A DNA stretch of 64,000 nucleotides from an uncultured Chloroflexia bacterium (GCA_963842845.1 CAWJHZ010000007.1:8342-72341); one strand, 5' to 3'; counted from the stretch's first letter, positions 1 to 26,226 are shown. The notes: generated by a model from the letters alone, not told the origin. Translations and numbers: made by a program.

Positions 1-174
1 AACTGCATGAGAATGTGCAACTTCGGCGCTATCGGCTACTCTGCCTACGCCAACAAGTGCACGGTAAACCAACTGCAGTGCTACGGCTGCGGCGTATGCA
101 GAGCGATTTGCCACAAGAAATCGATTGTCCTCGGGGACCGAACTGCCAGCCCGATGCTCGTCAACGAATGGTGA
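1..174 (+). CDS. 4Fe-4S ferredoxin-domain protein, C-terminal part (5' truncated by window edge)
   Basis: Frame 1 is open from position 1 and reads CNFGAIGYSAYANKC...CYGCGVCRAIC, i.e. CxxCxxCxxxC-type cluster motifs. It stops at TGA 172-174, overlapping the next start (ATGGTGA). Confidence 0.45.
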   Translation, partial: NCMRMCNFGAIGYSAYANKCTVNQLQCYGCGVCRAICHKKSIVLGDRTASPMLVNEW

Positions 175-494
175 TGCCGGTGATCGATTTGCAGGTCGAC
201 TCCCACAAGTGCGCCTCGCCCGACGAATGCCGCGTCTGCCTCGATCGCTGTCCCCAAAGCGTGTTCCAGATATATCCCGCCAATGGCCGAAGACCCGGCC
301 TCGCCACGACGGAATGGGCTATCCAACCGCTCTTCCTCAGCCTCTGCACCGCCTGCGGGATATGCCGCGACACCTGCCCTCAGCACGCCATCTCCATTGT
401 AGTCACGCAGGGCAGCGTCTCCCGGCCACCCGCCTCTAGAGGGTCGCTGCCCTCGGTGAGGCCGGCACATGGCAGGTCACCAGCTTCAGCCTAG
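168..494 (+). CDS. small dicluster 4Fe-4S ferredoxin-like protein
   Basis: ATG at 168 inside the ORF 15..494. Two Cys motifs, CRVCLDRCP and CTACGICRDTCP. The start overlaps the upstream stop, suggesting translational coupling. Confidence 0.5.
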   Translation: MVMPVIDLQVDSHKCASPDECRVCLDRCPQSVFQIYPANGRRPGLATTEWAIQPLFLSLCTACGICRDTCPQHAISIVVTQGSVSRPPASRGSLPSVRPAHGRSPASA

Positions 495-600
495 TAGACG
501 CGGCATCTGGTCACATGATTCTCAGTAACGCTGGCCTCTTGAGTCTCGCATTCGACCTTGATGTGTTCAAAGGGGCTTGCCCTGCTGAGGCACGGGTGAA

Positions 601-644
601 GGTCAATGCAGCACGCATACGACTAACGCCGAAACTGCTTGACA
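601..644. promoter_or_regulatory. 44-bp palindromic element, copy 1 (GGTCAATGCAG..N23..CTGCTTGACA), putative operator/promoter element upstream of the TSP3-dockerin gene
   Basis: The reverse complement matches copies at 7912-7955 and 11562-11605 with about 4 mismatches. Arms GTCAA(T)GCAG / CTGCTTGAC are inverted repeats. It contains a TTGACA hexamer. Confidence 0.5.
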
Positions 645-907
645 AAACCTTCTGAGAGTGCTAGAAAAACGACGACTGGTGGCCTTTCCCCGCTCAATGA
701 GCTGCGCAAATCGGCTGGCATTGATTGCCAAAGAACCAGCGAGGAGCGCTGTGCGTTTGTGTTTAGGTTCGTGTTCGGTCTGCCGATGGTTATGCGAAGG
801 ATTCTCCTCGTCACCAGTCCCCTTCGTCGGCCCGGCAGATCCCCCAGGCCGTGACCTTGTGGACGGGTCAGGCTGGTGTTGTTTTTCTCTCTGGTAGGAG
901 GAATGTG

Positions 908-3541
908 ATGATAAAGAGAGCCGTTTTCGTGACCGCCATCGGGCTGGTAGCGGTATTGGCAGCCCTCGGCCTGGGTTCGCTGAGTCGCGGCGCGACCCCG
1001 AGCCAAGCAGGCATCGGCATACCGATTCAGCCTTTCGCCCCGGACTGGTCCAACAGCGGAGAGTCCAGCGCTGCACTCGGAGACACCAACACCGGGGGGA
1101 ATGCCATAATAAACCTGGTTGCGCAGGATATCCCCCGCGGTCAGCGTATCGCCGGACCTTTGTTCTTCTCTGACCCAGCTTACCGCGTGCCTCTCGACAT
1201 GGACGGCACCGAGGGGGCGACTGTGGGCGACATCTTCGCCACACTGGACGTCATGTGTGACTCCACGGGTTCAGGCGCTGAGGACACGATGGGCAATGCG
1301 ACCCCGACCGACCCCTGGCCGTGGGTACAAAACACAACGGCAGCGCAAGGAACGATAGACTCCTTCCTCTACGCTGTGGTGCCGCCCTATCCTTGGCTTT
1401 TCCGTGACACTGTCACCGTCACGAAGTTCTGGATCGCCGGTGCCCCGGTCGGCACTAAGGTCGTGCTGAACAGCATTTGGACTTCGGTCCCCTGGTCAGC
1501 CAACGGCGCCGGCGACATCGTATCGACAAGGAACGGCGGCGACGCCCGCGTCTGGAGCGCGGCCACTGACGGTCTCTGCATCGACTCGCCGCAGAGCAGC
1601 GTATCTCACACTTCCACCAACTACGCGCCGCCTCTCTTGGGCGACACGGGCGGGGCTTGCACTGGCGGAAACTGCTCCGACGCGGCCGTCTACGGGCCAA
1701 TCGGCAAGTACACCCAGACCGGTGCTGGAACAGTCTCGGTCAAGGGCGTCTACGTGAATAGAGGACCCGACGCGGGCAACTTCACCGCCCACTGGGACAT
1801 TGAGGCGACAAACCCCAGCGTCGCCGACGCCAACTTCGTCACCGGCGGAACGAAGACCCTGGACCATGCTCAGGCCCTTCCGCTAGCCGTGTCTACCGAT
1901 GACCCGCAGAGCATCGCGATCACCTGTAGCGGCTCCGGCGAAGGGCTCCTCGTGGTCAAGGACGTCCTCTGGCCGGTTGCCCCGACTCAGGACTACTACC
2001 CGGCGGATAACGCCGACACCCTGGTAATCAAGGTCGTCTGCACGGCGGACGCGCCCACGCTCGTCGACCTGTCGGTCACGCAGCTTATCCAGAAGATGGG
2101 AGTTCCCGTGGTTTCGCCTGAGCCGTCCCAGCCCGAGCAGATCAACCTGCTGCAAGGCCAGGCGGCGACAGTTACCCTTCGTGACGTGACTACCAACAAT
2201 GCCACGAGCGTCCAGACCGCCACCGAGTGGCTCGACGCCCAGACATCCGGCGTTCTGACCTCGAGTTGGGGCTCAGCGACGTTGCCCAACGGCGGAAGCC
2301 AGACCAACGCCGGCGCTGGCACTCCCGATGCCAGTACTACAATCGCCGGCATCACCGAGCCTGTAGGCCAGAGCGACCTTACCGCACCTCTGACCGTCAC
2401 CTGCCCAGTTGCGGCGTTGGTGGGCCGCTACTCCGTCGTCGTGAAGGCTATCGTTGCCCCGAGCGCCAACGGAGAGCTGAAGCCCCAGGACAACGCCAAC
2501 CGCCTGGTTATCATGGTCAACTGCTGGACCACCATGCCGGCAGGCGACGGGTACGACGATGGCATGGGCCTGTACCCGCGCTGGACCATCGCTTTCAGCA
2601 ACCCGGACTCCCGTCAGTCGGGCAACCTCTCGTCGGGCACGCCTGAGACCTTGCTCCCGCCTAGCTTCCCGCAGGATGGCAATGGTGACACCAAATTGCA
2701 GCAGCCGATCGGCACCTACGTCGAGCGTTTCTTGCAGAACGGCTGCTACTGGGACGCGCCCGGTGGATGCCAGTTGACGCCCGGTGGCCCGACCACCGGA
2801 CCAGGGTCCTGCGACACCAACCTTGACGGCTACCTGACGCAGGCCGAGACGCAGCAGGACTACCGCCTGGTGGCTCTGGGTGGTATGGCCACCATCGACC
2901 CGAGCGGGGCCTGCCTCGAGCTGCCCCAGTACGCTCAGCCTGGACACCCGGTTGCGCTCCCGCAGACCAGCGCGGGCATGTGCCCGCAGGTACCGTGGGC
3001 AATGGCCGGCGGACCGCTCGCATCCCAGACCACGTACCCTGTGAACGCGGACCACGACTGCGACGGTATTCCGGACGGAGTCGAGGTTTCCTGGGGCTCC
3101 AACCCCTTGGTTGCCGACACGGACGGTGACGGCGCCAGCGACTACGTGGAGATGTTCGACCTCACGAACCCATTGAACCAGGACACCGACGCCGACGGCT
3201 TCCTCGACAAGCCATCCAACGTCTTTGGCGACAACACCGACAAGTCCATGGACAACTGCCCGACCGTCCCGAACGCAGACGGCCTCGGCGGCAACAGCCA
3301 GAAGAACACCGATGGCAAGCACCGCGCTGTCGGCAGCACAATCCCGGCGGGCAAGGCCAGCAACCCGAACAAGGACAAGATCGGCGACGCCTGTGACCCC
3401 GACAACGACAACGATGGGCTCCCGGACGCCGTCGAAGGTGTGATGGGCACGACATCCATAGGCACGGTAGGCGGCTGCAACCCGGCGACAGAATCCGAAC
3501 TGCCTGCCCGCCTACGACACCAACGGCAACCACTGCGTTGA
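908..3541 (+). CDS. large secreted protein with thrombospondin type-3-like Ca-binding repeats (N-terminal segment; likely continues into 3471..4124 after a frameshift)
   Basis: RBS AGGAGG then ATG at 908 (MIKRAVFVTAIGLVAVLAALGLG signal peptide). Repeats of the DTDGDGxxDxxE / DxDADG type near the C-terminal third. The frame ends at 3541 while an adjacent frame is open from 3471 and continues the same repeat style. Confidence 0.6.
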   Translation: MIKRAVFVTAIGLVAVLAALGLGSLSRGATPSQAGIGIPIQPFAPDWSNSGESSAALGDTNTGGNAIINLVAQDIPRGQRIAGPLFFSDPAYRVPLDMDGTEGATVGDIFATLDVMCDSTGSGAEDTMGNATPTDPWPWVQNTTAAQGTIDSFLYAVVPPYPWLFRDTVTVTKFWIAGAPVGTKVVLNSIWTSVPWSANGAGDIVSTRNGGDARVWSAATDGLCIDSPQSSVSHTSTNYAPPLLGDTGGACTGGNCSDAAVYGPIGKYTQTGAGTVSVKGVYVNRGPDAGNFTAHWDIEATNPSVADANFVTGGTKTLDHAQALPLAVSTDDPQSIAITCSGSGEGLLVVKDVLWPVAPTQDYYPADNADTLVIKVVCTADAPTLVDLSVTQLIQKMGVPVVSPEPSQPEQINLLQGQAATVTLRDVTTNNATSVQTATEWLDAQTSGVLTSSWGSATLPNGGSQTNAGAGTPDASTTIAGITEPVGQSDLTAPLTVTCPVAALVGRYSVVVKAIVAPSANGELKPQDNANRLVIMVNCWTTMPAGDGYDDGMGLYPRWTIAFSNPDSRQSGNLSSGTPETLLPPSFPQDGNGDTKLQQPIGTYVERFLQNGCYWDAPGGCQLTPGGPTTGPGSCDTNLDGYLTQAETQQDYRLVALGGMATIDPSGACLELPQYAQPGHPVALPQTSAGMCPQVPWAMAGGPLASQTTYPVNADHDCDGIPDGVEVSWGSNPLVADTDGDGASDYVEMFDLTNPLNQDTDADGFLDKPSNVFGDNTDKSMDNCPTVPNADGLGGNSQKNTDGKHRAVGSTIPAGKASNPNKDKIGDACDPDNDNDGLPDAVEGVMGTTSIGTVGGCNPATESELPARLRHQRQPLR

Positions 3542-3554
3542 TGGGTCCGAAGTC

Positions 3555-4124
3555 TTGCTCGGTGGCAACCCGCTGGGCACGGCCAAGTGCCCCGGTTCGC
3601 TTACCCTGGCCCAGGAGAAGTTCTTCCGTGCCTGTCACTGGAACCTCCCGGCCCTGGGCGCCTATGGTGGCCTATGGGACGCCAAGTACAGCACCAACAC
3701 CGACCGTACGGAGCTTGACCCTGACGACGACGGCGTCGCTTGCCAGACCCCTACCGGCGCTGTTGGAGACAAGGACAACGACAGCGGGCCGAGCGCCCTG
3801 CCCGACGTCCCGGACATCACTGAGATCGAGGGCTACAACACCAACCCGGCCAACAAGGACACGGACGGTGACGGGTGCGAAGACTACGTCCAGATCAACG
3901 ACGTGAACGGAAGCGGCGCTGTCGACACGACTGACCTGCTGATCGTTGCCAAGCGTCTCGGCGGAGCGACTCCGGCGAACAAGATGTCCGACGAGATAAT
4001 CGACGTCAACAAGGACGACACGATCAGCTCGAGCGACCTGCTTCAGGTTGCCAAGAACACCTGCACTGCCAAGGGTAATGCGGGTGGCTGTGGTGCGGCG
4101 GTCTGCAAGAACGCCGTCTACTAG
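3555..4124 (+). CDS. C-terminal segment of the same secreted protein: TSP3-like repeats plus a dockerin-like duplicated Ca-binding segment
   Basis: This frame is open from 3471 (NPNCLPAYDTNGNHCVDG...) without an ATG, so it is probably a continuation. Dockerin-like pair DVNGSGAVDTTDLLIVAKRLGG ... DVNKDDTISSSDLLQVAKN. Ends 4124. Confidence 0.55.
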   Translation: MLGGNPLGTAKCPGSLTLAQEKFFRACHWNLPALGAYGGLWDAKYSTNTDRTELDPDDDGVACQTPTGAVGDKDNDSGPSALPDVPDITEIEGYNTNPANKDTDGDGCEDYVQINDVNGSGAVDTTDLLIVAKRLGGATPANKMSDEIIDVNKDDTISSSDLLQVAKNTCTAKGNAGGCGAAVCKNAVY

Positions 4125-4184
4125 TTTACGGAAAGGCCGTTTCTGAAACGGAGCGGTGGAGCAACGGAATAGACGAGAATCAGT

Positions 4185-4223
4185 ACCGTCCGGGCCAACC
4201 CCCGAAAGGACGGCCCGGACGGT
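4185..4223 (+). terminator. GC-rich hairpin (12-bp stem ACCGTCCGGGCC / GGCCCGGACGGT) followed by a U-rich tract; likely rho-independent terminator
   Basis: Perfect inverted repeat read directly from the sequence, about 60 bp after the stop at 4124, followed by ATGTTGGTGTT. Confidence 0.5.
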
Positions 4224-4931
4224 ATGTTGGTGTTCAGCGCGGTTGTATTGAGTAGGATGAGTAGAAGCCTTCAGAGCGCTAACGGCTGAGCGACGGGCTC
4301 ACGACATCATCATGAGACGCTCTTATGTACAAGGGCCAGGCAATATCCCTCACCAGCGGTAATAGTACTGGTCTCACACCTGCCAGAGCCGCCAGATAGC
4401 TCGAATCAGGATTCGCTTGAGTGCACGTGGCCAGGACACAGTCGGGTCGGCCCAGTCCGCCTGCGCCTGTCCGCCGCGTGGCGTCCCAAAGCGGACGGTG
4501 GCTACCCCTCCCCAAGCATCGGTCGATAAGGGCTTGAGGAGGCCCCTGCCGAGTGCGCAGGCCTCCTCCGAACCCCCGGGGGCTGGACCTCTCCGAACAG
4601 GCGACATCAGCTCTTGACGCTCTCCCGCGGCCAGCTCAGAAGGAAGGCGCGATACGTCCGCACGACGAGGGGGATGGTCACGCCAGCTTCGGGCTTGGGC
4701 CCACGCTGCTGGAGCTGGCGTGAGCGATCTCACTGCTGCTCAAGCCTTGCCTCAATAGGTCCAAGATCTCCATCCTTCCGTCTGACAATCGGCCCTGATC
4801 GCATTGTCTGCGGGAGGGGCCCTCCGCCCAAACGGAAACTCCTGAGATAGCGCGATCCTGGGAATCTTTACATGGCGTGTGACAGTTAGCTCAAGGCGAC
4901 AGAGGTAAGCCCGCTTGAACCCCAGAGTCGG

Positions 4932-6482
4932 CTAGTAGCAGCCTATTTCTTCTTCCGTTACGTCAAGCTGCGCACCTGGAGTTCGCTCGAAGCAGAGCCC
5001 TAGCTGCTGGATGAACTGGTACGGCTCGAGGACGTCCGCAGGCACGTCCTTGACGCTAACGAGCACCCCCTGCCGACGAAGGGCTTCCTGCAGCTTCGCC
5101 ACGTCGAGCTTCTTCGGGCTTACGTTGTTTTGCGCCGCGAGCGCAGCCGCGGTGCCCGCGGCTTGCCCCGTGCAGATGCTGGGTGTGCAGTACCTCAGTC
5201 CGGCCATGGCGAAGGCGCCGCTCGACATCGTCGTTCCGGCCGCCATCAGATTGTCGATCCCCCTCGACAGCAGAGCGCGGTAGGGGACGTCGTGTGGTAC
5301 GATTTCGTACCTGAACCTGCCGGTCGCCTCATAGATGTCCGGCGGCATGTTGTTGATGGCAACGGAGTCCTCGAAGACCTTCCCCTCGCGCATCTCGCTC
5401 ACCGTCATCACGTGCTCACCGACGATCCTGTGACCTATCAGGGTGGGCGACTGCGGCAGCTTCTCGATATAGGAGTTCTCGAAACCAGGCACCTTCTCCT
5501 TGAGGAGTTGGTGCATCGCGAGGGTCTGCTTCCGGAGGTCTATCTCGCAGTCGGTCATCTCCTCCGCCATCCAGCCCGTGCGACCCAGCGGTACGGCGTG
5601 AACTGGATTCATGCAGTACACCTTGCCGGTGCCGTAGAAGTCCCATTCGGGCGAAAGGATGACGGAGCCGCTCTTGATGTCAGACCCCTTGGCCTGCGCT
5701 TCGCCGATAATCTTCCGCCCGCCGTACATTCCACCCCACTCGACCGGGTTCGCCTTCCGGAACTCGCGGAACTTTGCCAGGTCCACACCGTTCATGTAGA
5801 AGGCGTCGAGCATGCCGCCCGGATGTCCTTTGCGAGGCCCGACGGGGAAACCTTCGTCACCGAGGACGGGGGCGCCCGATCTCCACGCAATATCGCCCGT
5901 GCCCGTTACGTCGATGACCACTTTCCCCAGTATGGCTTGCCTGCCTTCCTTCGTCTCGACGATCACACCCTTGAGGGAATCGCCTTCCCGAATCGCGCCA
6001 GCCGCCAGCGTGTGGTAGAGCAGGTTAACTCCCGCTTCCGCCATCATCTGGTCGAGCATGCACTTGTAGTATTCGCCGTCGAAGGTGCGTCCCCAGCGTC
6101 CCCAATAGCCGACGCTCGTCTCTAGCAGGCGCTTCGGCAGCTGGTCAGGACTCTTGCCGTTCATGAAGGGCATCCTGCGGATGGCCTGTTCGGCGGTCGG
6201 TACATTCTCCTCGCTTCGCGAAGCGCCGGCCTTCACGAGACGGTCCAGGATCTCCATGACGATCCCGCCGTGCAAGCCGGGATCAACGAATGCGAAGATG
6301 GAGTTGTTGCCCTGCGTCTGAAGCCCGCCCAGGTTGCCAAATCGGTCTATTAGAATGGTCTGAGCTCCAGTTCGTGCCGAAGCTAATGCTGCTCCAATGC
6401 CCGCCGGCCCCCCGCCGACAACGATCACTTCGGTCTCGGCTAGTACGGGAACCTCTCTCTGCGGTTCTACGATTGTCTTCAA
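4932..6482 (-). CDS. FAD-dependent oxidoreductase
   Basis: N-terminal dinucleotide-binding motif VIVVGGGPAGIGAALASARTGAQTILIDRFGNLGG. 516 aa ORF. Confidence 0.7.
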   Translation of the reverse strand: MKTIVEPQREVPVLAETEVIVVGGGPAGIGAALASARTGAQTILIDRFGNLGGLQTQGNNSIFAFVDPGLHGGIVMEILDRLVKAGASRSEENVPTAEQAIRRMPFMNGKSPDQLPKRLLETSVGYWGRWGRTFDGEYYKCMLDQMMAEAGVNLLYHTLAAGAIREGDSLKGVIVETKEGRQAILGKVVIDVTGTGDIAWRSGAPVLGDEGFPVGPRKGHPGGMLDAFYMNGVDLAKFREFRKANPVEWGGMYGGRKIIGEAQAKGSDIKSGSVILSPEWDFYGTGKVYCMNPVHAVPLGRTGWMAEEMTDCEIDLRKQTLAMHQLLKEKVPGFENSYIEKLPQSPTLIGHRIVGEHVMTVSEMREGKVFEDSVAINNMPPDIYEATGRFRYEIVPHDVPYRALLSRGIDNLMAAGTTMSSGAFAMAGLRYCTPSICTGQAAGTAAALAAQNNVSPKKLDVAKLQEALRRQGVLVSVKDVPADVLEPYQFIQQLGLCFERTPGAQLDVTEEEIGCY

Positions 6483-6500
6483 GGTCCTTCTCCCGTTCGT

Positions 6501-7859
6501 CTATTGCGTCTCACCGGGCAGAGGAGCACCGGGTTGACCTTTTGCCTCTGCGGGGGGCGTCGGAACCGTACAGTTCTTGGTCGACTCAAAGCCGATCGGG
6601 TCGCCGAAGATCTGCCACCGGAAGACAGGCGACGCGCCGGTGCGGTCGACGGTTGCCTTCACGAAAACCTCTGACTCGAGAAAGCGGTGGTCGGTCGGAC
6701 TGGTGCTCGCCGGCAGGAGCGATAGGTCCGTGCCAAAATTACAGACGGACTCGGCCGCCGCAATCAAAGACTGACGGGTGAGATTCTTGCCTGCCTGCTT
6801 GAGGAGGCCCACCATACTTTCTCCCAGCTCGTAGCCCACGAGCGTGCTGTTGTCGAACGGTAGGTCCGGCGCGACCTGGGCCATGATGGCCTTCCGGCTG
6901 GCGACGCCGGGGATGTTCGTCTCCCACGCCTGGTGACCGACAGTGGTGCTAATCACGCCCTCGATATTGTCGAAGCCGGCAAGTTGCGCGGTAATGTCCA
7001 GGGCATTGGCTTCGTTGACCAGCATGGGGACGTTCCAGCTCAGAGTCTGCCGGACCGTCTTCATCATGTTCGCGGCCTGGACCGGGGAGCCCCAGAACAT
7101 GATTACTTCGACGCCGTCGGACTTCAGGCGCTCGACCTGAGCGGTGACGTCCGGCTGCGACACGTCATACCACTCAGTGGTGACATCCATGTTGGCTCCG
7201 AGGTCTTTGAGTCCTTGTCTTGTGCCCTGCTCGCCCTCTTTTCCGAAGTCGTCGTTCTGGGCGAGGATGCCCAGCTTCTTCCCATCGTAGTTCTGGTATA
7301 GATACGTCGCGAAGATGTGGCCTTCTGTCCCGTAGTCGACCATGGTCGTGAAGCGGTTCTTGCCCACCGGGTTGGTCAATTCGCTGGAGCCGCTCAGCGC
7401 GAACATGTCAGGGACACCCTTGTCTTCCAAGTACTTGTAGACAGCGTCTTCGGGCTCGGTACCGAGATTGCCGATGAGGGCAAAGACGCCGTCCTGCTCC
7501 ACCAGCGTCCGGACCACTTCAATGGCGACAGGTCCGGAGTATTGGCTATCACCGACGACAAGATTAATCTTCCGACCGTACATGCCGCCCTGCGTGTTTA
7601 TGTAGTCGAAGTACGCCTGCATGCCTTTGCTGATTTCGATTCCCCAGGCAGCCGTTGGGCTACCGCTCAGGGGCATGAGGGTTCCTAGCGTAATCGCCGT
7701 ATCGGTGACTCCCGTCGTGTCGCCACCGCCTCCCGTGGCGTTGCCGGAGTTGCTCGCATCATCATTGCTCGACCCACAAGAGCCCATGAAGATAGCGAAC
7801 ACCATGAGTGCCGCGGTCAAAAGGACGAGTATGCGCCTGAGTTGTTGTGCTTTCATCAC
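6501..7859 (-). CDS. ABC transporter substrate-binding lipoprotein (branched-chain amino acid / LivK-like periplasmic binding fold)
   Basis: Signal peptide plus lipobox (LMVFAIFMGSCGSS), Gly/Thr-rich linker, and a type-I periplasmic binding protein-like sequence. 452 aa. Confidence 0.6.
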   Translation of the reverse strand: MMKAQQLRRILVLLTAALMVFAIFMGSCGSSNDDASNSGNATGGGGDTTGVTDTAITLGTLMPLSGSPTAAWGIEISKGMQAYFDYINTQGGMYGRKINLVVGDSQYSGPVAIEVVRTLVEQDGVFALIGNLGTEPEDAVYKYLEDKGVPDMFALSGSSELTNPVGKNRFTTMVDYGTEGHIFATYLYQNYDGKKLGILAQNDDFGKEGEQGTRQGLKDLGANMDVTTEWYDVSQPDVTAQVERLKSDGVEVIMFWGSPVQAANMMKTVRQTLSWNVPMLVNEANALDITAQLAGFDNIEGVISTTVGHQAWETNIPGVASRKAIMAQVAPDLPFDNSTLVGYELGESMVGLLKQAGKNLTRQSLIAAAESVCNFGTDLSLLPASTSPTDHRFLESEVFVKATVDRTGASPVFRWQIFGDPIGFESTKNCTVPTPPAEAKGQPGAPLPGETQ

Positions 7860-7911
7860 TACCTCTCGTGGCTCCGGGATCGGAGTCCAGTGTGAATCTG
7901 GCGTCCGCGCC

Positions 7912-7955
7912 TGTCAAGCAGTTTCGGAGTTAGGCGTATGCGTACTGCATTGACC
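7912..7955. promoter_or_regulatory. 44-bp palindromic element, copy 2, 53 bp upstream of the ABC binding-protein gene
   Basis: TGTCAAGCAGTTTCGGAGTTAGGCGTATGCGTACTGCATTGACC. Inverted arms GTCAAGCAG / CTGCATTGAC. Confidence 0.5.
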
Positions 7956-8030
7956 TCTGCAGATCGTAGGGCCACGCTGCCGCGAGGACCTGGTCCTTCA
8001 GGCGGCAGGGTAGCATGCCATCGCATCGGT

Positions 8031-8987
8031 TCAATTTGATGGGTTGCTGCGCGTAAGGCCGGACCAGCGCACGATGTCCAAGCCCTCGTCGCGAGCGGCC
8101 TCGGCCAGTTTCTCCATCTCGCCCTCAGACATCAGATGATCTTGCGCGAGAGCGTAGGGACGGTCGAGGCGATGATACTTGGCGGAGCACGTGTTGTTGA
8201 AAGCGAGAAGGTCATATCGGTCAACCGTGGGCAGGTTGTCGCGGATAAAGGCAGCGACCCGGCGCACGGTTGCTTCGTCGGCAGTATAGCCGGGTATGAT
8301 CGGGGTTCGTATCCACATCGGCTTGCCAGACCGGGACACGCGCCGCGCGTTCTCCAGCACGATGTCCAGCGGCACGCCTGTGTGCGCCCGATGGCGCTCC
8401 TCGTCGAGCACCTTCAGGTCGAACAGAACAAGGTCCGCGAGATCGACGAGCGGCTGAAGACGTCGCCAGCTCGTGCCACCACAGGTGTCTAGCGCCAGGT
8501 GCACCCCCGCCTGCCGCACGACGCTCATTAGACTGTGGCAGAACTCTGTCTGCATCGATGGCTCGCCGCCGGAGAGGGTTACACCGCCGCCAGACGTCTC
8601 GAAGAACACGCGATCGCGCAGGACGATTTCGGCCACGTCCTCGACGCTTCTGCGCTTGCCCAGCACTTCGAGGGCGGCCGACGGGCATGCCTCAACGCAA
8701 TCGCCACAGGCATCGCACAGACCCCTGTCAATAGTCATCCCCTCTCTGGTCAGTGTAAGGGCGTGCGAGGGGCACGCATCGAGGCATTTCCTTGCACCGA
8801 CGCAGTGTGGCCCATACCACACAAGTTGGGGCCGTGTCCCAATTCCCTCGGGGTTATGACACCAGGGACAGCGCATGGGGCAGCCTTTGAGGAAGACCGT
8901 CGTGCGAACGCCGGGGCCATCCTCAGTGGAGTGGCGTTGAATATTGAAGATGTCACCGGTAGGGCCGGCACTCTCGCGGAGCATCAA
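8031..8987 (-). CDS. glycyl-radical enzyme activating enzyme (radical SAM, with extra ferredoxin-like 4Fe-4S clusters)
   Basis: CPMRCPWCHNPE radical-SAM cluster motif near the N-terminus. Additional motifs CxxCxxCxxxCP (CLDACPSHAL, CDACGDCVEACP). Immediately downstream of the GRE gene. Confidence 0.8.
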   Translation of the reverse strand: MMLRESAGPTGDIFNIQRHSTEDGPGVRTTVFLKGCPMRCPWCHNPEGIGTRPQLVWYGPHCVGARKCLDACPSHALTLTREGMTIDRGLCDACGDCVEACPSAALEVLGKRRSVEDVAEIVLRDRVFFETSGGGVTLSGGEPSMQTEFCHSLMSVVRQAGVHLALDTCGGTSWRRLQPLVDLADLVLFDLKVLDEERHRAHTGVPLDIVLENARRVSRSGKPMWIRTPIIPGYTADEATVRRVAAFIRDNLPTVDRYDLLAFNNTCSAKYHRLDRPYALAQDHLMSEGEMEKLAEAARDEGLDIVRWSGLTRSNPSN

Positions 8988-9016
8988 ATCAAAGCCTGCG
9001 CCTGAGTCTCGAGATC

Positions 9017-11431
9017 CTAAGAAACGCCGAACTCCGTTCTTTCGATGATGTCGTTCTGAAGGGACCTCGATAGATCGATGAACCGGTATGAATAGCCGCT
9101 GACTTTGACCATCAAATCAGGGTAGTCTCCCGGATTCTTCTGTGCATCCTTGAGCGTCTCCCTGCCCATCGGGTTGAACTGGACTTGTCTGCCGCCCAGT
9201 TTGAAGTAAGCCTCGAGCAGCGAGGCGAGTTTGTCCGCTCCCTCATCCGTCCTGATGGTGAGCGGATTAAGGGTCATGTTGACAGCGGTCCCAGAAGACA
9301 AGGAAGCGGACGACGCGGTCGCGGTTGAGTGGAGCGCAGCCGTCATCCCATTGAGTTCGGTCCCGTTTGCGGGAGACATACCGTTCGAAACAGGTCGTCC
9401 CTGCAACCTACCGTCCGGCGTGGCCCCCAGCACGCGACCCTCGGAAACCTGTGACCCGAGGGCAGAGATCAAGAGGGCCCGGTAGGGGCCGCCATCTATC
9501 ACGCGCCTGTGCTTTCGAGCTTCCTTGTCCAGCGTGTCAGTCACCCAAGCAGCGATTTCGTCCGCCTCTGGGTCGTCGTTGCCGTATTTGGGCGCTTTGC
9601 GAAGCAGTTGCTGCTTCAGCTCCTCGGCACTCTCGAAATTGTTGCGCAGGTGCTTGACGAGCTCTTCCATCGTGACGAGCTTCTTCTCGAACACAGCCCA
9701 ACGAATTGCGGCGAGCGAGTTGACGACTGTTCCCAGCCCCTGACAGGAAACCGAGGCATGATTGTACCGAGCCCCACCCCGGGTGATATCGCGACCTGAC
9801 TCTACGCATCCTTCGATGGTCGATGACAGGAGCGGGGTCGGGAAGGATTCGGCGAAGACCCGGTCCTTAGCGTCCGTCAGCTTGACCATGACGTCTATCG
9901 AATTGGCCAGTTGATCGGCGAAGGCCTTCTTCACGTCTGCGAACGTCTTGAGAGCGGCGGCCGGTGGAGTCCTCACGCCTATGCGTTCCCACTTGCTGGT
10001 GAGTGCGCAACCCTCGTTCAGCGCCATTTCCAGAGCAAGCACGAAGTGAGCGATGCTGCCCGATGTGTAGCCGTTGTTGTTCCCCGTCGACGTCAACTCG
10101 ACGCATCCGACAATGGCGTAGTCCCGCGCATCTTCCAGCGCGTAGCCGTCCTTCATCAGGTCCCTTATCACCACAGCGTCATTGTAGAAAGCTACGCCGG
10201 CGGTGTTTCTGTAGGTTTCGCAGGCCTTCACGAGAAAGTCACGAGGCGATTTCTCAGAGATCCTCACCGCCAAGCCGTTCCGAAGGCCTTTCAGCCGGTT
10301 GTAGGACTCAAGCATGAGATAGGATATCTCGTTCGTCGCGTCCTCACCGCTTCGGCCCAACCCACCGATTGTGATGTTGTTGGGGCCGAAGACGGTAAAG
10401 GTGGACACTTTGATAAAGTACTCATCGAGCGCCTCGAGAGCCTCCTCGCGCGTCAGCCTCCCGGCCTCTGTGTCCCTCTTGTAGTACGGGCAAAGATATT
10501 GGTCGACACGCCCCGGCGCAAAAATGGCGTCTTCACCGTAGCTTATCGCGGTGACGACCTGGGTCATCCAGACGGCCTGCACGGCATCCATGAAGGTAGT
10601 CGGCGGCTCCGCCGGCACGCGCCGGCAGCGATCAGCGATTTCGAGCAGCTCTGCTTTCCTTCGACCATCTGCCTCCTGAGCCATTTCTTCCGCGAGACGA
10701 GCGTAGCGCTCAGAGTGGTCGCAGACAGCCATAGCTGCCACCTGCACGGATTCGAGGAAGTCCTTACGCTGATCGTACTGTGCATCTCCCTCTTTGAGCC
10801 TGGCAAGTTGTTGCGCCGCTTGCCTCGCTATGCCGTTGAACCCCATATCGAGGACCTTCTTGACTCCTACCGTGACATGACCCTGCATATCCGCCACAAA
10901 GGCAACCCGCGGGGACGGACTGCTCTCGGAGACCAAGCCCTCTCTCTTCCACCGGTCAAGCATCAAGCTGTGCGCGTCCTTGCCTATCCAGTAGGGGAGG
11001 ATCTCCTCGGTCAATTCCTTGAGCATCTCATCAGGCATATTGAGGAGTTCCCTGATCCATTCCGGACCGACGGCCTCGATATCGTCCACAAAGCGGATAT
11101 CATCTGTGGTCTTCCCATGAAAGGGTATCCCGATGAATATGGCCCGGCTCAGGGATGACCTTTCGATGCCAATGGGAGCGGCAACCGTCTTGAAGGATTT
11201 TGCTCCAACCAGAAGGTCATCGTCGTCAATCTTGATGGACATGTGGCGCAGGGTCTCTTCCAGCCCCTTGGCCGCACGCATGCACGGAGGAACACCTTCT
11301 GTCCGCTTGTATGCCCTTGTATAATACTTGGCGCGTTCGATATCTGCCTCAAAGGGACTCGACAGCAGATTCTCTCGCAGCCTGCCCACCCTCTCTGAGT
11401 AGGCAGCTTCGCTCTTCGTAGTCGCGATCAT
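9017..11431 (-). CDS. glycyl radical enzyme (PFL-family, eliminase/dehydratase-type active site)
   Basis: 804 aa. C-terminal glycine radical motif RVSGYSYRF. Active-site loop IVGCVEL typical of GRE eliminases (glycerol dehydratase/CutC/HypD-like) rather than PFL. Confidence 0.8.
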   Translation of the reverse strand: MIATTKSEAAYSERVGRLRENLLSSPFEADIERAKYYTRAYKRTEGVPPCMRAAKGLEETLRHMSIKIDDDDLLVGAKSFKTVAAPIGIERSSLSRAIFIGIPFHGKTTDDIRFVDDIEAVGPEWIRELLNMPDEMLKELTEEILPYWIGKDAHSLMLDRWKREGLVSESSPSPRVAFVADMQGHVTVGVKKVLDMGFNGIARQAAQQLARLKEGDAQYDQRKDFLESVQVAAMAVCDHSERYARLAEEMAQEADGRRKAELLEIADRCRRVPAEPPTTFMDAVQAVWMTQVVTAISYGEDAIFAPGRVDQYLCPYYKRDTEAGRLTREEALEALDEYFIKVSTFTVFGPNNITIGGLGRSGEDATNEISYLMLESYNRLKGLRNGLAVRISEKSPRDFLVKACETYRNTAGVAFYNDAVVIRDLMKDGYALEDARDYAIVGCVELTSTGNNNGYTSGSIAHFVLALEMALNEGCALTSKWERIGVRTPPAAALKTFADVKKAFADQLANSIDVMVKLTDAKDRVFAESFPTPLLSSTIEGCVESGRDITRGGARYNHASVSCQGLGTVVNSLAAIRWAVFEKKLVTMEELVKHLRNNFESAEELKQQLLRKAPKYGNDDPEADEIAAWVTDTLDKEARKHRRVIDGGPYRALLISALGSQVSEGRVLGATPDGRLQGRPVSNGMSPANGTELNGMTAALHSTATASSASLSSGTAVNMTLNPLTIRTDEGADKLASLLEAYFKLGGRQVQFNPMGRETLKDAQKNPGDYPDLMVKVSGYSYRFIDLSRSLQNDIIERTEFGVS

Positions 11432-11561
11432 CGCAGTCTCCTTCAGCGCGCAAACAAAAGCCTCGCGCCGGCCAATCCCTCAAAACAACGGCGCACTTAA
11501 TCCCGGAATTGCAGTCGACGCACGGGCGCCGACCATTCAGTTTGAATCTGACATCGGCGCC

Positions 11562-11605
11562 TGTCAAGCAGTTTCGGAGTTAGGCGTGTGCGCCGCGTAC
11601 TTGCC
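11562..11605. promoter_or_regulatory. palindromic element, copy 3 (right arm partly degenerate), in the divergent GRE / MarR intergenic region
   Basis: TGTCAAGCAGTTTCGGAGTTAGGCGTGTGCG... is identical to copy 2 over about 30 nt. The preceding TGAATCTG context is also shared with copy 2. Confidence 0.45.
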
Positions 11606-11721
11606 TTCGCAGGCCGTTTAGAGGAACATGCCAACGCTTCGGACAACGTGTCACACCCTCAGCCTTATACGGTACCAGCCTGAAGTGTGATATCCTCTCT
11701 AGCATCAAGCCACGCGGGTGT

Positions 11722-12159
11722 GTGGAAGCTATGCCTATCGAAGAGTGGTGGAGCCTGTACGCGGCCTACGCCTGGATGCATAAGGAATGCGACCGCGCGT
11801 TGTCGCCCCGGGACCTCACGGTCTCGCAAGCTGCAGTGGTCGGGTTTCTAGGCATGGCCGGACGGCCGCTGAGGGTGACGACGCTGGCCCGGCTGCTGAT
11901 CCAGGAGAGTCAGAGCGCAACCAGTCTCGTTGACCGCATGTGCGCCGGCGGGCTCGTGGAGCGAGTAAAAGACCCCGACGATCGGCGTGTGGTCCGGGTC
12001 CGGCTAACTGATAAGGGCGAGCAATTGTACGATATCCTCCAGACGACGGCGCCCCAATTCAACGACGAGATGTTCAGCGTCCTGTCGTTCGAAGAGCGGG
12101 AGACCCTTAAAGACCTGCTTCAGAAGTTCACCCGACGCAACGTGCAGCGCTTTCGTTGA
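11722..12159 (+). CDS. MarR family transcriptional regulator
   Basis: 145 aa. Winged-helix region ...SQAAVVGFLGMAGRPLRVTTLARLLIQESQSATSLVDRMCAGGLVERVKDPDDRRVVRVRLTDKG. Divergent from the GRE operon. Confidence 0.75.
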   Translation: MEAMPIEEWWSLYAAYAWMHKECDRALSPRDLTVSQAAVVGFLGMAGRPLRVTTLARLLIQESQSATSLVDRMCAGGLVERVKDPDDRRVVRVRLTDKGEQLYDILQTTAPQFNDEMFSVLSFEERETLKDLLQKFTRRNVQRFR

Positions 12160-12207: not shown

Positions 12208-12295
12208 CTGGCCTGCCCCCGAAAACGAGTCCACGCTCTATGTTACTCGTACAGGCACCATCTGGTATGACGGAGCCATGATTCCTGCCCACGGC
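12208..12295. mobile_element. solo remnant (about 90 bp) of an IS3-family terminal inverted repeat end
   Basis: CTGGCCTGCCCCCGAAAACGAGTCCACGCTCTATGTTACTCGTACAGG... is about 85% identical to the right end of the complete IS at 23145-23235. No transposase follows. Confidence 0.55.
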
Positions 12296-12403
12296 ATTAC
12301 TGCCCCCAAGCGCGCGTGGCCTGCACTCCAAGGCGTGGTGGGGACGCAAAACATGTGTGGTTGGTGTCGGCGATTCGGACTTCGACGAGCGTTGGACCGG
12401 GCG

Positions 12404-12434
12404 TTGACGGCGCTGCCTATTCTTTGCGTATAAT
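12404..12434 (+). promoter_or_regulatory. putative promoter of MmeI-like gene 1: TTGACG ... TATAAT with the -10 box only 7 bp from the ATG (leaderless or near-leaderless mRNA)
   Basis: TATAAT at 12429-12434, ATG at 12442. TTGACG about 19 bp upstream. The same TATAAT-7bp-ATG arrangement occurs upstream of the paralog at 33515. Confidence 0.35.
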
Positions 12435-12441
12435 CCGTCCG

Positions 12442-15228
12442 ATGAACCCCAACGAATTCGTACGCAAATGGGCTGCCTCCACCCAGAGCGAAAGTGCGGC
12501 TGCACAAGCGCATTTCATCAACCTGTGTCAGATGCTGGGCGAGGGAACGCCCAACGAAGACCCCAGCGGCGATTACTTCGCCTTCGAGAAAGGCGCGAAA
12601 AAGCCCGACGGCGACGGGTTTGCCGACGTGTGGCTCAGGAACCACTTTGCCTGGGAGTACAAGGGCAAACACAAAGACCTCGGGATTGCTTACAAGCAGG
12701 TTCAGACGTATCGCGAGGCGCTGGGTAACCCGCCGCTGCTCGTTGTCTGCGACATAGAACGATTCGAAGTCCACACCAACTGGACCAACACAGAGACCTG
12801 GATCTACCGCTTCCGCAACGCCGACATCGCGCTGGACGAGCCGGTCGAAGTCACCACTTACGGCGGGCCCGCTGCCGACGCCCCGAAGCTCACAGCCCTC
12901 CAAGTCCTGAAGGCGCTCTTCGAGGAGCCCGAGCGCCTGAAGCCTCTCCGGACTACCGAGCAGATCACACAGGAGGCCGCCAAGCTCTTCGGCCGCATCA
13001 CCGATGACCTGCGCAAATGGAAGGTAGAGGACATGCGCATCGCTCGCTTCGTGACGCGGGTCATGTTCTGCATGTTCGCGACAGACGTGGGCCTGTTGCC
13101 GCGCGAGACCTTTAGCGAGGTCATCAACGTCAACAAGGACGACCCCGCCGCATTCCGCGAGAACCTGTCGGCGCTCTTCGGCGTCATGGCGGAAGGCGGC
13201 AAGTTCCTCATGCACCCCGTCCCTTACTTTAACGGCCGCTTGTTCGAGGACAGCGACGTGCCCGACGAGATCCACGGCGAGCACGTGCGGCTTTTGGAAG
13301 ACCTGAACGACCTCAACTGGGCGGACGTGGAACCGGTCATCTTCGGCACGCTGTTCGAGCGCGTCATCGACCCCGCCCACCGCAAGCAACTGGGCGCGCA
13401 TTACACCTCTCGAGCCGACATCGAGCTGATCGTTGAGCCGGTGCTGATGGCGCCCCTGAGGCGGGAGTGGGACCAGATCAAGGCAGCGGCGGAGGACCTG
13501 CCGGAGAACGCGGCTTCGCGGCGGCGCATCGCCGGCGCGCTGCAGACGTTCCAGAACCGGCTGGCAACTATCCGTGTTCTTGACCCCGCCTGCGGCTCCG
13601 GCAATTTCCTCTACGTCTCCCTGGCTCTTCTCAAGGCCCTCGAAAAAGAGGTTATCGCCTTCGGGTCGTTGCATGACGTTGCGCTCTCCCCGCGCGTTCA
13701 CCCGCGCCAACTGATGGGCCTGGAGATCAGCGAGTACGCGCGGGAGCTGGCATCCATAGTCATATGGATAGGCTACCTGCAGTGGAAGCATAGAAACGTC
13801 ATCCCGTTTGCCGATGAGGTGCCCATTCTGCAGCCACTGGACCAAATCGAACTTCGCGATGCGATATTGGACCTTTCTAGCCCGTCGGGTCCCAGGGAAC
13901 CGGATTGGCCTGAGGTCGATATCATTATTGGGAATCCTCCGTTCCTTGGCACCAAGAAAATGCGGGAGGCTCTTGGCGATGATCTCACCCGCGCACTGAG
14001 ATCGGTCTACGCCGGACGCGTCCCCGGCTTTGCTGATTTGTGCTGCTACTGGTTTGAGAAGGCGCGGCGGGCCATCCAGGAGGGCAAGGCGAAGAGGGCC
14101 GGGCTCTTGGCCACGCAAGCGATTAGAGGCGGCCTCAACCGTGAAATCCTGAAGTCGATCAAGCGCACGGGCGATATCTTCTTTGCAGAATCCGATAGGC
14201 CGTGGATACTCGATGGCGCTGCTGTTCATGTTTCAATGATCGGGTTCGATGATGGGAGTGAACGGTGCCGATTTCTGGATGGCCGGCCCGTCGACAACAT
14301 CAATCCTGACCTCACGAGCCAGTCTAACGTGACGGCCGCAAGGCGACTCGCCGAGAACGCGGGCATTGGGTTCATCGGCGACGTGAAGGTAGGTTCGTTC
14401 GACATTGAACAGTCGCTGGCCGTTTCCTTCTTGGCGCTGAGCGGCAACCCCAACGGCAAGCCGAACGGTGATGTGATTCGGCCTTGGGTGAATGGCGCAG
14501 ATTTCACGGGGCGTTGTCGCTCCAGGTGGATCATCGACTTTCCTCCGGGTATGTCAGCCGAAGAGGCTGCCAAGTACGAGAAGCCATTTGAGTACGTAAG
14601 GGCTCACGTCAAGCCCCTGCGGGATACAAGCAAACGTAAGCCCTACCGAGAAAAGTGGTGGATCCATGCGGAAGCATGCGTGGCGATGCGAGACGCTATC
14701 AAGGGCCTCTTGGTTAGTCCGACCCTTACAAAGCATCGTCTCTTCGTATGGTGCGAGCCCCCAGCACTGCCAGATCATCAACTGGTCGTGTTCGCGCGGG
14801 ACGACGACTATTTCTTCGGCGTTCTCCACTCCCGCGCTCATGAGGTGTGGGCACGCGCCACAGGCACCCAGTTGCGAGAAGTGGAGAGCGGTTTCCGTTA
14901 TACCCCGACAACCTGTTTCGAGACGTTCCCGTTCCCAAGACAATCGCCAGAGCAGCCGGGCGCAATCGCAGAGGCGGCGCGGGAACTCGATGGTCTGCGG
15001 CAGACCTGGCTTGACCCGCCGGAAGACAGCATCGCTCCGAGTGAACTCAAGAAGCGCACTCTAACCAACCTCTACAACCAGCGCCCCACCTGGCTGGCAA
15101 ACGCGCATCGCAAGCTGGACGAGGCGGTGTTCGCGGCATACGGCTGGCTGGAGTCGCCGGACGCGCTGTCGGACGCGGACATCGTCAAGCGGCTGTTGGA
15201 GTTGAACCTCGCGAGAGAGCCCGCCTAG
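12442..15228 (+). CDS. MmeI-family Type IIL (IIG) restriction-modification enzyme: fused PD-(D/E)xK nuclease, N6-adenine methyltransferase and target-recognition domains; intact
   Basis: The N-terminus aligns with the MmeI pattern (FVRKWAAS...PDGDGFADVWLRNHFAWEYKGK...QVQTYREALGNPPLLVVCDIERFEV) with the D...EYK nuclease motif. SAM motif VLDPACGSGNFL. Motif IV GNPPF. The long C-terminal region is the TRD. Single ORF of 928 aa from the second Met. Confidence 0.8.
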   Translation: MNPNEFVRKWAASTQSESAAAQAHFINLCQMLGEGTPNEDPSGDYFAFEKGAKKPDGDGFADVWLRNHFAWEYKGKHKDLGIAYKQVQTYREALGNPPLLVVCDIERFEVHTNWTNTETWIYRFRNADIALDEPVEVTTYGGPAADAPKLTALQVLKALFEEPERLKPLRTTEQITQEAAKLFGRITDDLRKWKVEDMRIARFVTRVMFCMFATDVGLLPRETFSEVINVNKDDPAAFRENLSALFGVMAEGGKFLMHPVPYFNGRLFEDSDVPDEIHGEHVRLLEDLNDLNWADVEPVIFGTLFERVIDPAHRKQLGAHYTSRADIELIVEPVLMAPLRREWDQIKAAAEDLPENAASRRRIAGALQTFQNRLATIRVLDPACGSGNFLYVSLALLKALEKEVIAFGSLHDVALSPRVHPRQLMGLEISEYARELASIVIWIGYLQWKHRNVIPFADEVPILQPLDQIELRDAILDLSSPSGPREPDWPEVDIIIGNPPFLGTKKMREALGDDLTRALRSVYAGRVPGFADLCCYWFEKARRAIQEGKAKRAGLLATQAIRGGLNREILKSIKRTGDIFFAESDRPWILDGAAVHVSMIGFDDGSERCRFLDGRPVDNINPDLTSQSNVTAARRLAENAGIGFIGDVKVGSFDIEQSLAVSFLALSGNPNGKPNGDVIRPWVNGADFTGRCRSRWIIDFPPGMSAEEAAKYEKPFEYVRAHVKPLRDTSKRKPYREKWWIHAEACVAMRDAIKGLLVSPTLTKHRLFVWCEPPALPDHQLVVFARDDDYFFGVLHSRAHEVWARATGTQLREVESGFRYTPTTCFETFPFPRQSPEQPGAIAEAARELDGLRQTWLDPPEDSIAPSELKKRTLTNLYNQRPTWLANAHRKLDEAVFAAYGWLESPDALSDADIVKRLLELNLAREPA

Positions 15229-21354: not shown

Positions 21355-21490
21355 CTCCCTCCTCGAGGTTGTCGTCGCCGCTGGCGGCTGGATTATACGA
21401 CAACGTTCTTCGCCTTCGCAGCATCGCCTTGACTTTCGCGCACACTAATGCATCATGGTCATGATTCCACGTTTGCGAAGGAGAACGACC

Positions 21491-21715
21491 ATGACAGCGA
21501 CCATCATCCCCATCGGCGAGGAGGCAGCAGGCTGGGAACGCGCTCTCTACGCATTTCTTGCCGAAAAGGAGAGGCGGAGCGGCTCAAGACGCATAGTCGA
21601 AGGCTACTCGCGCACTCTCCAGCACTTCTTCGGGGCCGTTGGCAAGCCGCCGGACAGAATCACAAGCCAGGAGGTCTTCACCTGGGCTTACGGCAGAGGA
21701 CTCTCGGGCAACTGA
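21491..21715 (+). pseudogene. N-terminal fragment (about 75 aa) of a tyrosine integrase, near-identical to the N-terminus of the intact integrase at 37926
   Basis: MTATIIPIGEEAAGWERALYAFLAEKERRSGSRR(I/T)VEGYSRTLQHFFGA... matches 37926..38150 at both protein and nucleotide level, including about 60 bp of upstream sequence. It terminates after SGN, with no catalytic domain. Confidence 0.7.
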
Positions 21716-22063: not shown

Positions 22064-22139
<76 letters not shown>

Positions 22140-23134: not shown

Positions 23135-23173
23135 AGTGCGCAAGTGGCCTGCCCCCGAAAACGAGTCCACCCT

Positions 23174-26173: not shown

Positions 26174-26200
26174 CAATCCGCAGCGAAGACCGGCATCGCC

Positions 26201-26226
26201 GTGTGTGAAACTGTCCACGTGAGAAC
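26201..26226 (+). repeat. conserved 3' cassette element GTGTGTGAAACTGTCCACGTGAGAAC (one of five copies; others at about 25284, 27521, 29130 and an orphan at 39856)
   Basis: Exact or near-exact 24-26 nt repeat found 25-35 bp after the stop codon of each cassette gene. It is co-conserved with the last codons (CGCTGGCTCCACTAG) and a CAACCCGCAGC spacer. Confidence 0.7.

Follow-up and report, generated by a model that had tools for sequence, protein, structure and literature searches.

A promoter-like repeat conserved beside a MarR-family gene in glycyl radical enzyme loci of uncultured Dehalococcoidia-type bacteria

Introduction

A 64-kb stretch of DNA from an uncultured Chloroflexia bacterium (GCA_963842845.1 CAWJHZ010000007.1:8342-72341), hereafter the window, carries three copies of a short intergenic repeat. 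One copy lies upstream of the genes for a glycyl radical enzyme (GRE) and its activase, one upstream of the genes for a Peripla_BP_6 solute-binding protein (BP) and a flavin adenine dinucleotide (FAD)-dependent oxidoreductase (FADox), and one upstream of the gene for a TSP3-repeat/dockerin surface protein (TSP3). A gene for a MarR-family regulator is divergent from the first of these. In a first-pass annotation, the repeat had been put forward as a candidate 44-bp palindromic operator of this regulator. The locus thus raises the question whether the repeat is an operator, a promoter, a mobile element or an RNA signal. From comparison of the copies with each other and with those of related loci, we conclude, with a probability of roughly 0.6, that it is a sigma-70-type promoter combined with a cis-regulatory block of about 30 nt upstream of the -35 box, together forming the control region of a MarR-linked gene cluster.

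Three copies of the repeat in the window

Direct check of the sequence located the three copies at 601-644, 7912-7955 and 11562-11605 (window coordinates, as throughout), as had been annotated; they are referred to below as c601, c7912 and c11562. When 601-644 on the minus strand was compared with 7912-7955 on the plus strand, 3 of 44 positions differed. The 41 positions kept agree with the earlier estimate of about 40 of 44, which was rightly judged to be far above background: none of 100 dinucleotide-preserving shuffles of the window gave any 44-nt match of this kind. The 16-mer TGTCAAGCAGTTTCGG, with up to three mismatches allowed, was found exactly three times in the window against 0.5 expected, and no shuffle reached three. 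A fourth copy was not detected in the 64 kb at E ≤ 1 with two nhmmer profiles built from all known copies.

By the repeat finder, c7912 and c11562 were found to share an 80-nt repeat (7888-7967 and 11538-11617, 79% identity), which runs past the left arm of the annotated palindrome and takes in a -10-like hexamer there. c601 and c7912 form an inverted pair of 45 nt (93% identity), with homology roughly bounded by the two arms. The arm layout is 10+23+11, and the inter-arm spacer is therefore 23 nt rather than the 24 or 25 nt first given. The copy at 601 does lie in inverse orientation, on the plus strand, so that all three copies have the same polarity with respect to their own gene, in the order distal arm, spacer, CTGCTTGACA, downstream gene. 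The distance from the 7912 copy to the start of the binding-protein gene is 53 nt, as annotated, when counted to GTG at 7859, and 56 nt when counted to ATG at 7856. The parts of each copy, as defined by the alignment A2 (80 columns, 16 distinct copies), by the repeat finder (c11562), and by copy comparison and homology to a related contig, L023 (c601), are as follows.

7883..7962, minus strand: c7912 (row win7912 of A2), full 80-nt block upstream of the Peripla_BP_6/FAD-oxidoreductase unit
7945-7955: distal arm of c7912
~7918-7942: conserved upstream block of c7912
7912-7917: -35 box TTGACA of c7912
7895-7911: 17-nt spacer of c7912
7889-7894: -10 box CACACT of c7912
~7882: predicted transcription start of c7912
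11533..11612, minus strand: c11562, upstream of the GRE-activase genes and divergent from the MarR gene
11562-11567: -35 box TTGACA of c11562
11545-11561: spacer of c11562
11539-11544: -10 box CAAACT of c11562
~11532: predicted transcription start of c11562
594..673, plus strand: c601, a chimera, upstream of the TSP3 gene
594-638: upstream block of c601
639-644: -35 box TTGACA of c601
645-661: spacer of c601
659-667: extended -10 TGc-TAGAAA of c601
~674: predicted transcription start of c601

Promoter-like geometry of the conserved block

All 16 distinct copies aligned over the 80 columns of A2 without any gap. TTGAC occupies columns 46-50 in every one of the 16 copies and is followed by A in 14. 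The spacer after this -35 box is 17 nt long in every copy and semi-conserved (GGCG...ATGCC.GATT), and the -10 box in columns 69-74 reads CAcACT, in which A70 and A72 never change and T74 is conserved to at least 90%. The block CGCATACGC.TAACTCCGAAACTGC (columns 21-45), which immediately precedes the -35 box, is near-invariant in the main group of copies. The information content was high at columns 21-52 and 59-74 and fell to background in both flanks. The most conserved parts of the repeat are the 'spacer' between the two arms plus the -35 box, followed by the -10 box; the conserved block both abuts and includes the -35 box.

This geometry is that expected of a sigma-70-type promoter with a consensus -35, a weak -10 and a tightly constrained block abutting the -35, and promoter activity is predicted on this ground. 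The distance from the -10 box to the start codon varies from 33 (c7912) to 108 nt in the family, a range which fits 5' untranslated regions rather than a fixed translational element; for c601, the leader of which is conserved in L023, it is 241 nt. Since TTGAC is invariant and the promoter spacing fixed, the proximal arm of the annotated palindrome can best be interpreted as the -35 box with four adjoining bases. An ECF-type (extracytoplasmic function sigma factor) reading of the form GAAAC-N16/17-CGTC was also considered upon inspection of A2 only, and its -10 part did not fit most copies.

Conservation of the repeat beside MarR genes in related bacteria

For exact-core scans, 185,579 species genomes (one genome per species) and JGI metagenomes were used. 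A single locus was obtained from the genomes, in a Dehalococcoidia metagenome-assembled genome from SPRUCE peat (L001) that is 97% identical to window 1-3943. We assign the window to a Dehalococcoidia population of peat. Four contigs were obtained from the metagenomes. Two of them (L004 and L005) are 97%-identical strain variants with the same three sites, and the other two (L002 and L003) carry diverged copies in the divergent intergenic region adjoining a MarR gene, the product of which begins MPIEEW..., as does the MarR protein of the window. All sites obtained from the two scans were orthologous or paralogous ones of this kind. Protein search with the window MarR gave 48 homologues, and the contigs of ten of these were examined. 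They showed a conserved module in which MarR (142 aa) is divergent from Peripla_BP_6, followed by GRE and, in many loci, by the activase, and the element was detected by nhmmer in essentially all MarR-adjacent intergenic regions of these loci.

In the related metagenomic loci, 13 further distinct copies were identified, each upstream of Peripla_BP_6/GRE genes. The element and the BP/GRE gene are on the same strand throughout the related loci, and usually the element is divergent from the orthologous MarR gene. The first-pass annotation had proposed a shared cis-regulatory sequence with the adjacent MarR as the obvious candidate for its regulator. This proposal gained support, because MarR orthologues (57-98% identical) divergently adjoin the element in at least 10 distinct loci. 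These MarR genes start 96-130 bp from the distal end of the element, and MarR is the only regulator gene kept beside it across the loci. Within the main group of loci the DNA core does not vary, although the GRE orthologues are only 70-85% identical to the window GRE and the binding proteins 45-65% (57-65% for most loci, 45-52% for L007 and L017), indicating purifying selection on the core. In L007 (9807-15288) and L017 (1306-14311), two to three MarR/element/target modules stand in tandem, each with its own copy of the element, and these arrays include truncated MarR and PFL-like fragments, indicating that the whole control module duplicates as a unit. Separate copies precede the GRE and BP genes in L007, as in the window; in most relatives one copy serves BP-GRE(-activase). 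Altogether, the promoter element adjoins a MarR gene in about a dozen related uncultured Dehalococcoidia-type lineages.

Short length, inverted-repeat ends and several intergenic copies are also the marks of small mobile or repetitive extragenic palindromes such as REP or MITE (miniature inverted-repeat transposable element) sequences, and the arms roughly mark the limits of the homology between c601 and c7912, as they would for such an element. This origin is nonetheless extremely improbable. The copy number is very low, with only three copies in 64 kb, all of one polarity and all upstream of genes, instead of many copies at random places and orientations; the exact-core scans gave no more than one genome contig and four from metagenomes, each with the core at an orthologous or MarR-adjacent site; its position is kept from lineage to lineage; the homology between c7912 and c11562 extends past the arm; and one arm doubles as the -35 box.

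The palindrome is confined to two copies

We then examined the two arms of the repeat. The arms are complementary at 10 of 10 positions in c7912 and at 9 of 10 in c601, but at 3 of 10 in the MarR-adjacent copy c11562 and at 2-8 of 10 in the relatives. Six copies of the latter (L002, L012, L006, L019, L003 and L010) keep 6-8 complementary positions against about 2.5 expected, and six others have 2-4. The distal arm (columns 9-19) is poorly conserved, and the sequence between the arms is conserved better. No compensatory change between the arms was detected, and the observed pairing was reached in 383 of 500 shuffles. Paired cells amounted to 62.5% against 25-47% in slid controls, a control that is biased because the structure was taken from one row.

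According to the first-pass annotation, the 44-bp inverted repeat (GTCAA-T-GCAGT ... ACTGC-TTGAC) would be an operator bound at both arms by a dimeric regulator; as the arms are three helical turns apart, binding of a tetramer or of two dimers could also be envisaged. One MarR dimer covers about 20 bp rather than 44, and a distance of about 32 bp between the centres of the arms is not compatible with one dimer. The near-perfect arms of c7912 and c601, the six relatives with 6-8 matches and the excess of paired cells speak for such an operator, and so does Rdh2R, a MarR-type regulator encoded beside rdhA genes in Dehalococcoides mccartyi, which is reported to act cooperatively as a tetramer (Krasper et al. 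2016, as cited in PMC7755780 and bioRxiv 10.1101/2024.02.28.577416). We consider an operator of this kind quite unlikely, since the copy next to the MarR gene itself shows little of the symmetry, as do six others, since the arms do not covary and the sequence between them is conserved better than the distal arm, and since the proximal arm is fully explained by the -35 box. Given the poor conservation of the distal arm elsewhere, the lack of covariation and the lack of a conserved dyad or fold, the 44-bp palindrome is a feature of two copies in this lineage and not of the element family.

Several dyads noticed by eye (CGyATrCG; AAnCnGnTT; GGCA-n-TGCC in the spacer; ATTCA-n3-TGAAT at the -10 box) failed across loci. 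The palindrome was also considered as back-to-back -35 boxes of an ancestral bidirectional BP/TSP3 promoter. This was ruled out because c601 and c7912 both present the same arm, that without the extra T, to the gene, and because the BP/TSP3 intergenic region of L023 is without the element.

A role of the element as RNA, either as a terminator or attenuator hairpin, as a riboswitch or as a small RNA, is likewise very improbable. A hairpin does form in silico in c7912 and c601, but its fold z scores are only -0.35 and -1.75, respectively, and positive in four other copies. RNAalifold gave -0.36 kcal/mol with no covarying pair, and neither a match to Rfam nor a U-tract was found for the element.

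A chimeric copy upstream of the TSP3 gene

The origin of the additional copies was analyzed by comparison with L023, a 2.28-Mb contig of a relative that was found through TSP3 homologues. In L023 the BP-FADox genes and the TSP3 gene are divergent neighbours (FADox<-BP<- and ->TSP3), and no element was detectable in the region between BP and TSP3. The BP-FADox pair is present without the element in L012 as well as in L023. Upstream of BP, homology between the window and L023 ends at window 7865. Upstream of TSP3, it extends from window 846 back to 638 with 88.5% identity (coding region, 72.8%). This homology begins 1 nt before TTGACA, the sequence beyond which c601 is no longer homologous to the other copies. 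The copy c601 is therefore a chimera: from 594 to 638 it consists of the upstream block of the element, which passes, through a CTTGACA common to both, into the native promoter of TSP3 (TTGACA-N17-TGcTAGAAA) with its conserved leader of about 230 nt. The position of the junction gives independent support for TTGACA as a promoter -35 box, and the c601 promoter represents a clean natural example of promoter rewiring at that box. c601 is lineage-specific, and c7912 is probably so too.

The TSP3 leader (645-907) showed no Rfam match, no convincing small open reading frame (ORF) and a fold z of 0.11. With 88.5% identity to L023, this leader of about 230 nt is more conserved than the coding region (72.8%).

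The gene order of window 594-7962 (->TSP3...FADox<-BP<-) is circularly permuted relative to that of L023 6564-13269 (FADox<-BP<- ->TSP3), and at the two ends of the permuted segment in the window stand c601 and c7912, inverted with respect to each other and directed inward. In the related loci examined, no TSP3 homologue was found near MarR clusters. The regulon once proposed for the repeat stands in part: the association with the GRE and the binding protein is conserved, but that with the FAD oxidoreductase and the TSP3/dockerin gene is lineage-specific, as both the BP-FADox pair and TSP3 of L023 are without the element.

On this basis c601, and perhaps c7912, could be scars of rearrangement, for instance by microhomology joining at CTTGACA, with only the MarR-adjacent copy being functional. 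We regard this as a real but minor possibility. Such an origin would account for the circular permutation of the TSP3, FADox and BP genes with respect to L023, in which all three are without the element, and for the c601 junction exactly at the 7-nt microhomology common to both parents, and other duplications and inverted repeats abound in the window. It would account less well for c7912, a complete promoter copy that directly follows a strong hairpin and ends 33 nt ahead of the start codon of BP, or for the separate GRE and BP copies of L007. Furthermore, c601 retains 41 of 44 positions and is kept in the 97%-identical strains L001 and L004, and a block abutting a live -35 box would affect that promoter if anything binds to it.

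A probable link between MarR and the control region

The link between the element and MarR is well supported by conserved divergent synteny, by duplication of MarR, element and target as one module, and by a correspondence between protein and DNA: the MarR recognition helix QESQSATSLVDRM does not vary in the main group, in which the DNA core is likewise constant, and the L017 paralogues have a different helix as well as a different core. Binding of MarR to the element is predicted on these grounds. The closest solved MarR proteins are remote (E ~1e-11), so that an operator cannot be transferred by homology. The MarR gene has a putative promoter of its own, which was recognized by motif comparison and has a predicted transcription start at about 11703 (plus strand).

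11688-11696, plus strand: extended -10 (TG-a-TATCCT) of the MarR promoter

The motif TGnTATCCT is conserved in 14 aligned MarR upstream regions and, in the window, ends 35 nt before the MarR ATG. As an operator common to the element and this promoter, only a trivial GTTAT resemblance was noted, which showed no co-variation.

The following mode of control is proposed. The cluster controlled would comprise the solute-binding protein, GRE and activase genes in a family of uncultured bacteria. In the direction of the gene, the control region would consist of the weak distal arm, CGCATACGC.TAACTCCGAAACTGC, TTGACA, the 17-nt spacer and CAcACT, and RNA polymerase would start about 7 nt after the -10 box. 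One or more dimers of the divergently encoded MarR may bind to the invariant block that abuts or overlaps the -35 box, possibly also to the spacer, and would thereby control initiation, most likely as a ligand-released repressor. MarR itself would be transcribed from an extended -10 promoter of its own, at a distance of about 85 bp. The cluster is split in this lineage into GRE-activase and BP-FADox units, each with its own full copy, and a third, partial copy (upstream block plus -35) is fused to the native TSP3/dockerin promoter. Because c601 retains exactly the block and the -35 box, a factor that binds to the block would be expected to act also on the TSP3 promoter, and the three units may then be co-regulated. 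Two of the three window copies, if they act, do so in trans from MarR.

The block might instead serve another factor, such as a global anaerobic or carbon regulator, or an UP-like contact of RNA polymerase, and MarR would then bind to another site, such as the spacer between the -35 and -10 boxes or the surroundings of the transcription start. The lack of a dyad within the block is compatible with this, and the region upstream of the -35 box is the usual place for activators and for the C-terminal domain of the RNA polymerase alpha subunit; in addition, the spacer (GGCG..ATGCC.GATT) is unusually conserved for a sigma-70 promoter, with a GGCA-n-TGCC symmetry in some loci. It is unlikely all the same, as MarR is the sole regulator gene conserved beside the element, as the block contains G+C and is far more sequence-specific than UP elements, and as c601 keeps exactly the block and not the spacer.

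Several observations weigh against a sigma-70-type promoter controlled by MarR through the adjoining block. The -10 box (CACACT/CAAACT) matches TATAAT at 3 of 6 positions only, and the sites were missed by a consensus promoter scan because 4 of 6 matches are required there. Within the footprint (arms of 5-11 nt, gaps of 0-39), no conserved dyad with arms of at least 6 bp exceeded 0.62 mean complementarity, the best conserved dyad having 5-bp arms and 0.66. Most characterised MarR proteins bind to short palindromes (bioRxiv 10.1101/2024.02.28.577416), and without a dyad no half-sites can be assigned to MarR. About 85 bp separate the MarR promoter from the element, and the two have no evident operator in common. 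The parallel conservation of MarR helix and DNA core could simply reflect shared phylogeny. Finally, c601, and possibly c7912, could be by-products of rearrangement, since the L023 orthologues are without the element.

Genes around the copies

The genes next to the three copies were verified with Pfam and are listed below, together with a hairpin between two of them and the tRNA gene of the window.

11731-12159, plus strand: MarR-family regulator, 142 aa (MarR_2/HTH_27/MarR), sole MarR gene in the window (single copy by tblastn)
9017-11431, minus strand: GRE of the eliminase/dehydratase class (PFL-like and Gly_radical), downstream of c11562
8031-8987, minus strand: GRE-activating radical S-adenosylmethionine enzyme, the activase (Radical_SAM, Fer4_12)
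7977-8008, minus strand: G+C-rich hairpin (by fold), directly after the activase stop codon and before c7912
6501-7856, minus strand: Peripla_BP_6 solute-binding protein, downstream of c7912
4932-6482, minus strand: FAD-dependent oxidoreductase (FAD_oxidored), downstream of the binding-protein gene
908-4124, plus strand: TSP3-repeat/dockerin surface protein gene, downstream of c601
22067-22139, minus strand: tRNA gene, the only match in the window at the Rfam gathering score

The order is thus MarR divergent from c11562 with GRE-activase, then the hairpin, then c7912 with BP-FADox. The best solved relatives of the GRE are B12-independent glycerol dehydratase, hydroxyproline dehydratase and choline trimethylamine-lyase. 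On the minus strand, 7956-8034 folds at -31.9 kcal/mol (z -2.66; none of 200 shuffles folded as well), and the hairpin at 7977-8008, which is without a U-tract, possibly forms a terminator-like boundary between two transcription units. The TSP3/dockerin gene consists here of two ORFs on the plus strand, TSP3 at 908-3541 and dockerin at 3555-4124. Its homologues (P0050-P0053) are single proteins of about 1050 aa, and in the window a frameshift, a stop codon or a sequencing error probably interrupts the gene.

Other repeats in the window

A second promoter-like repeat, CTTGACTT.C.CGCACACTAATGCA.CATGGT, is present in three copies (21423-21459, 35461-35497 and 37857-37893), two of which precede paralogous genes (228-nt repeat, 21484-21711 and 37919-38146). 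Like the element described above, it has a strong TTGAC -35 box and a cAnnaT-type -10 box. An intergenic repeat family, CCCCCGAAAACGAGTCCAC.CTCTATGTTACTC..., occurs at 12209-12307, 23145-23243 and 24386-24418, and also in L023 (14682-14763), where it is 92.7% conserved; one copy follows shortly after the stop codon of MarR, and one of the others is inverted.

Two paralogous genes for MmeI-family type IIL restriction-modification enzymes lie in inverted orientation at 12316-15228 (plus strand) and ~30699-33528 (minus strand), with repeat arms of up to 986 nt at 91% identity (12559-13544 and 32410-33395). Several gene ends that encode a hydrophobic stretch followed by GGWYARRRWL(H/R)* were found at 26126-26265, 27447-27585, 29061-29155, 30492-30530 and 39820-39879; the ending looks like a C-terminal anchor or sorting signal, and most of these genes are followed by a conserved 3' sequence, GTGTGAAACTGTCCACGTG. 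Long tandem arrays at 33971-34722 and 28743-28910, in which periods of 6/18/24 nt (GTCGGCGTGGCC...) and a repeat of 24 nt were noted, probably code for protein segments that are repetitive and rich in Asp/His/Gly. Two inverted repeats may be the ends of mobile elements: one of 44 nt (86% complementary, 53248-53291/55214-55257) brackets 1.9 kb, and a perfect one of 24 nt (44860-44883/45372-45395) brackets 488 nt.

Discussion

Divergent regions in which a MarR gene shares an operator-promoter with its target are represented by marO-marRAB of E. coli and by those of PcaV, CouR and HcaR in organic- and aromatic-acid catabolic operons. The region described here resembles them in that a small winged-helix-turn-helix MarR, of 142 aa in this case, is divergent from its presumed target operon, in that conserved DNA overlaps or abuts the predicted -35/-10 boxes of the target, and in that the functions are uptake and catabolism. 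It differs from them in that no 16-20-bp palindrome or pseudopalindrome was found, in having its best-conserved block upstream of the -35 box, in having a separate MarR promoter about 85 bp away, and in having no close relative among solved or characterised MarR proteins. The element may thus work like a classical divergent MarR-operator/promoter region, an analogy of function that is supported by synteny and does not extend to the palindrome.

Two other MarR systems bear on the comparison. Rdh2R is of the same bacterial class, its MarR-type gene likewise adjoins catabolic or respiratory genes, and its reported cooperative tetramer binding is the only precedent able to accommodate two distant arms; the targets of Rdh2R are reductive dehalogenases, in contrast to the GRE and binding protein here. 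SCO4122 of Streptomyces coelicolor is a MarR-family activator with non-palindromic motifs of about 26 bp (bioRxiv 10.1101/2024.02.28.577416), and is thus an example both of a MarR site that is no dyad and of activation by a MarR protein. SCO4122 requires three motifs and regulates an efflux pump, whereas one contiguous block is found here. A literature search for this cluster or for a link between MarR and GRE gave nothing relevant.

With these precedents in mind, a further reading may be put forward, which we hold to be doubtful. The block of about 45 nt formed by CGCATACGC.TAACTCCGAAACTGC plus TTGACA would be a portable cassette for this MarR clade, a non-palindromic site upstream of or overlapping the -35 box at which MarR possibly acts as an activator or as a cooperative tetramer. 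The cassette would have been grafted at the -35 box of TSP3, and the whole promoter placed before BP-FADox, so that the MarR regulon of the lineage would have been expanded. If this is true, a cell-surface Ca-binding dockerin protein is tied to the substrate that is sensed for an uncharacterised GRE.

The preferred reading, a promoter with an adjoining block for MarR, makes the region ordinary in kind for bacterial gene regulation. The hosts of the GRE are uncultured bacteria of peat and sediment. The ligand that releases or activates MarR on the element is likely to be the substrate of the GRE or an intermediate of its pathway, and a near-invariant control region with a dedicated MarR would offer a practical route to that substrate.

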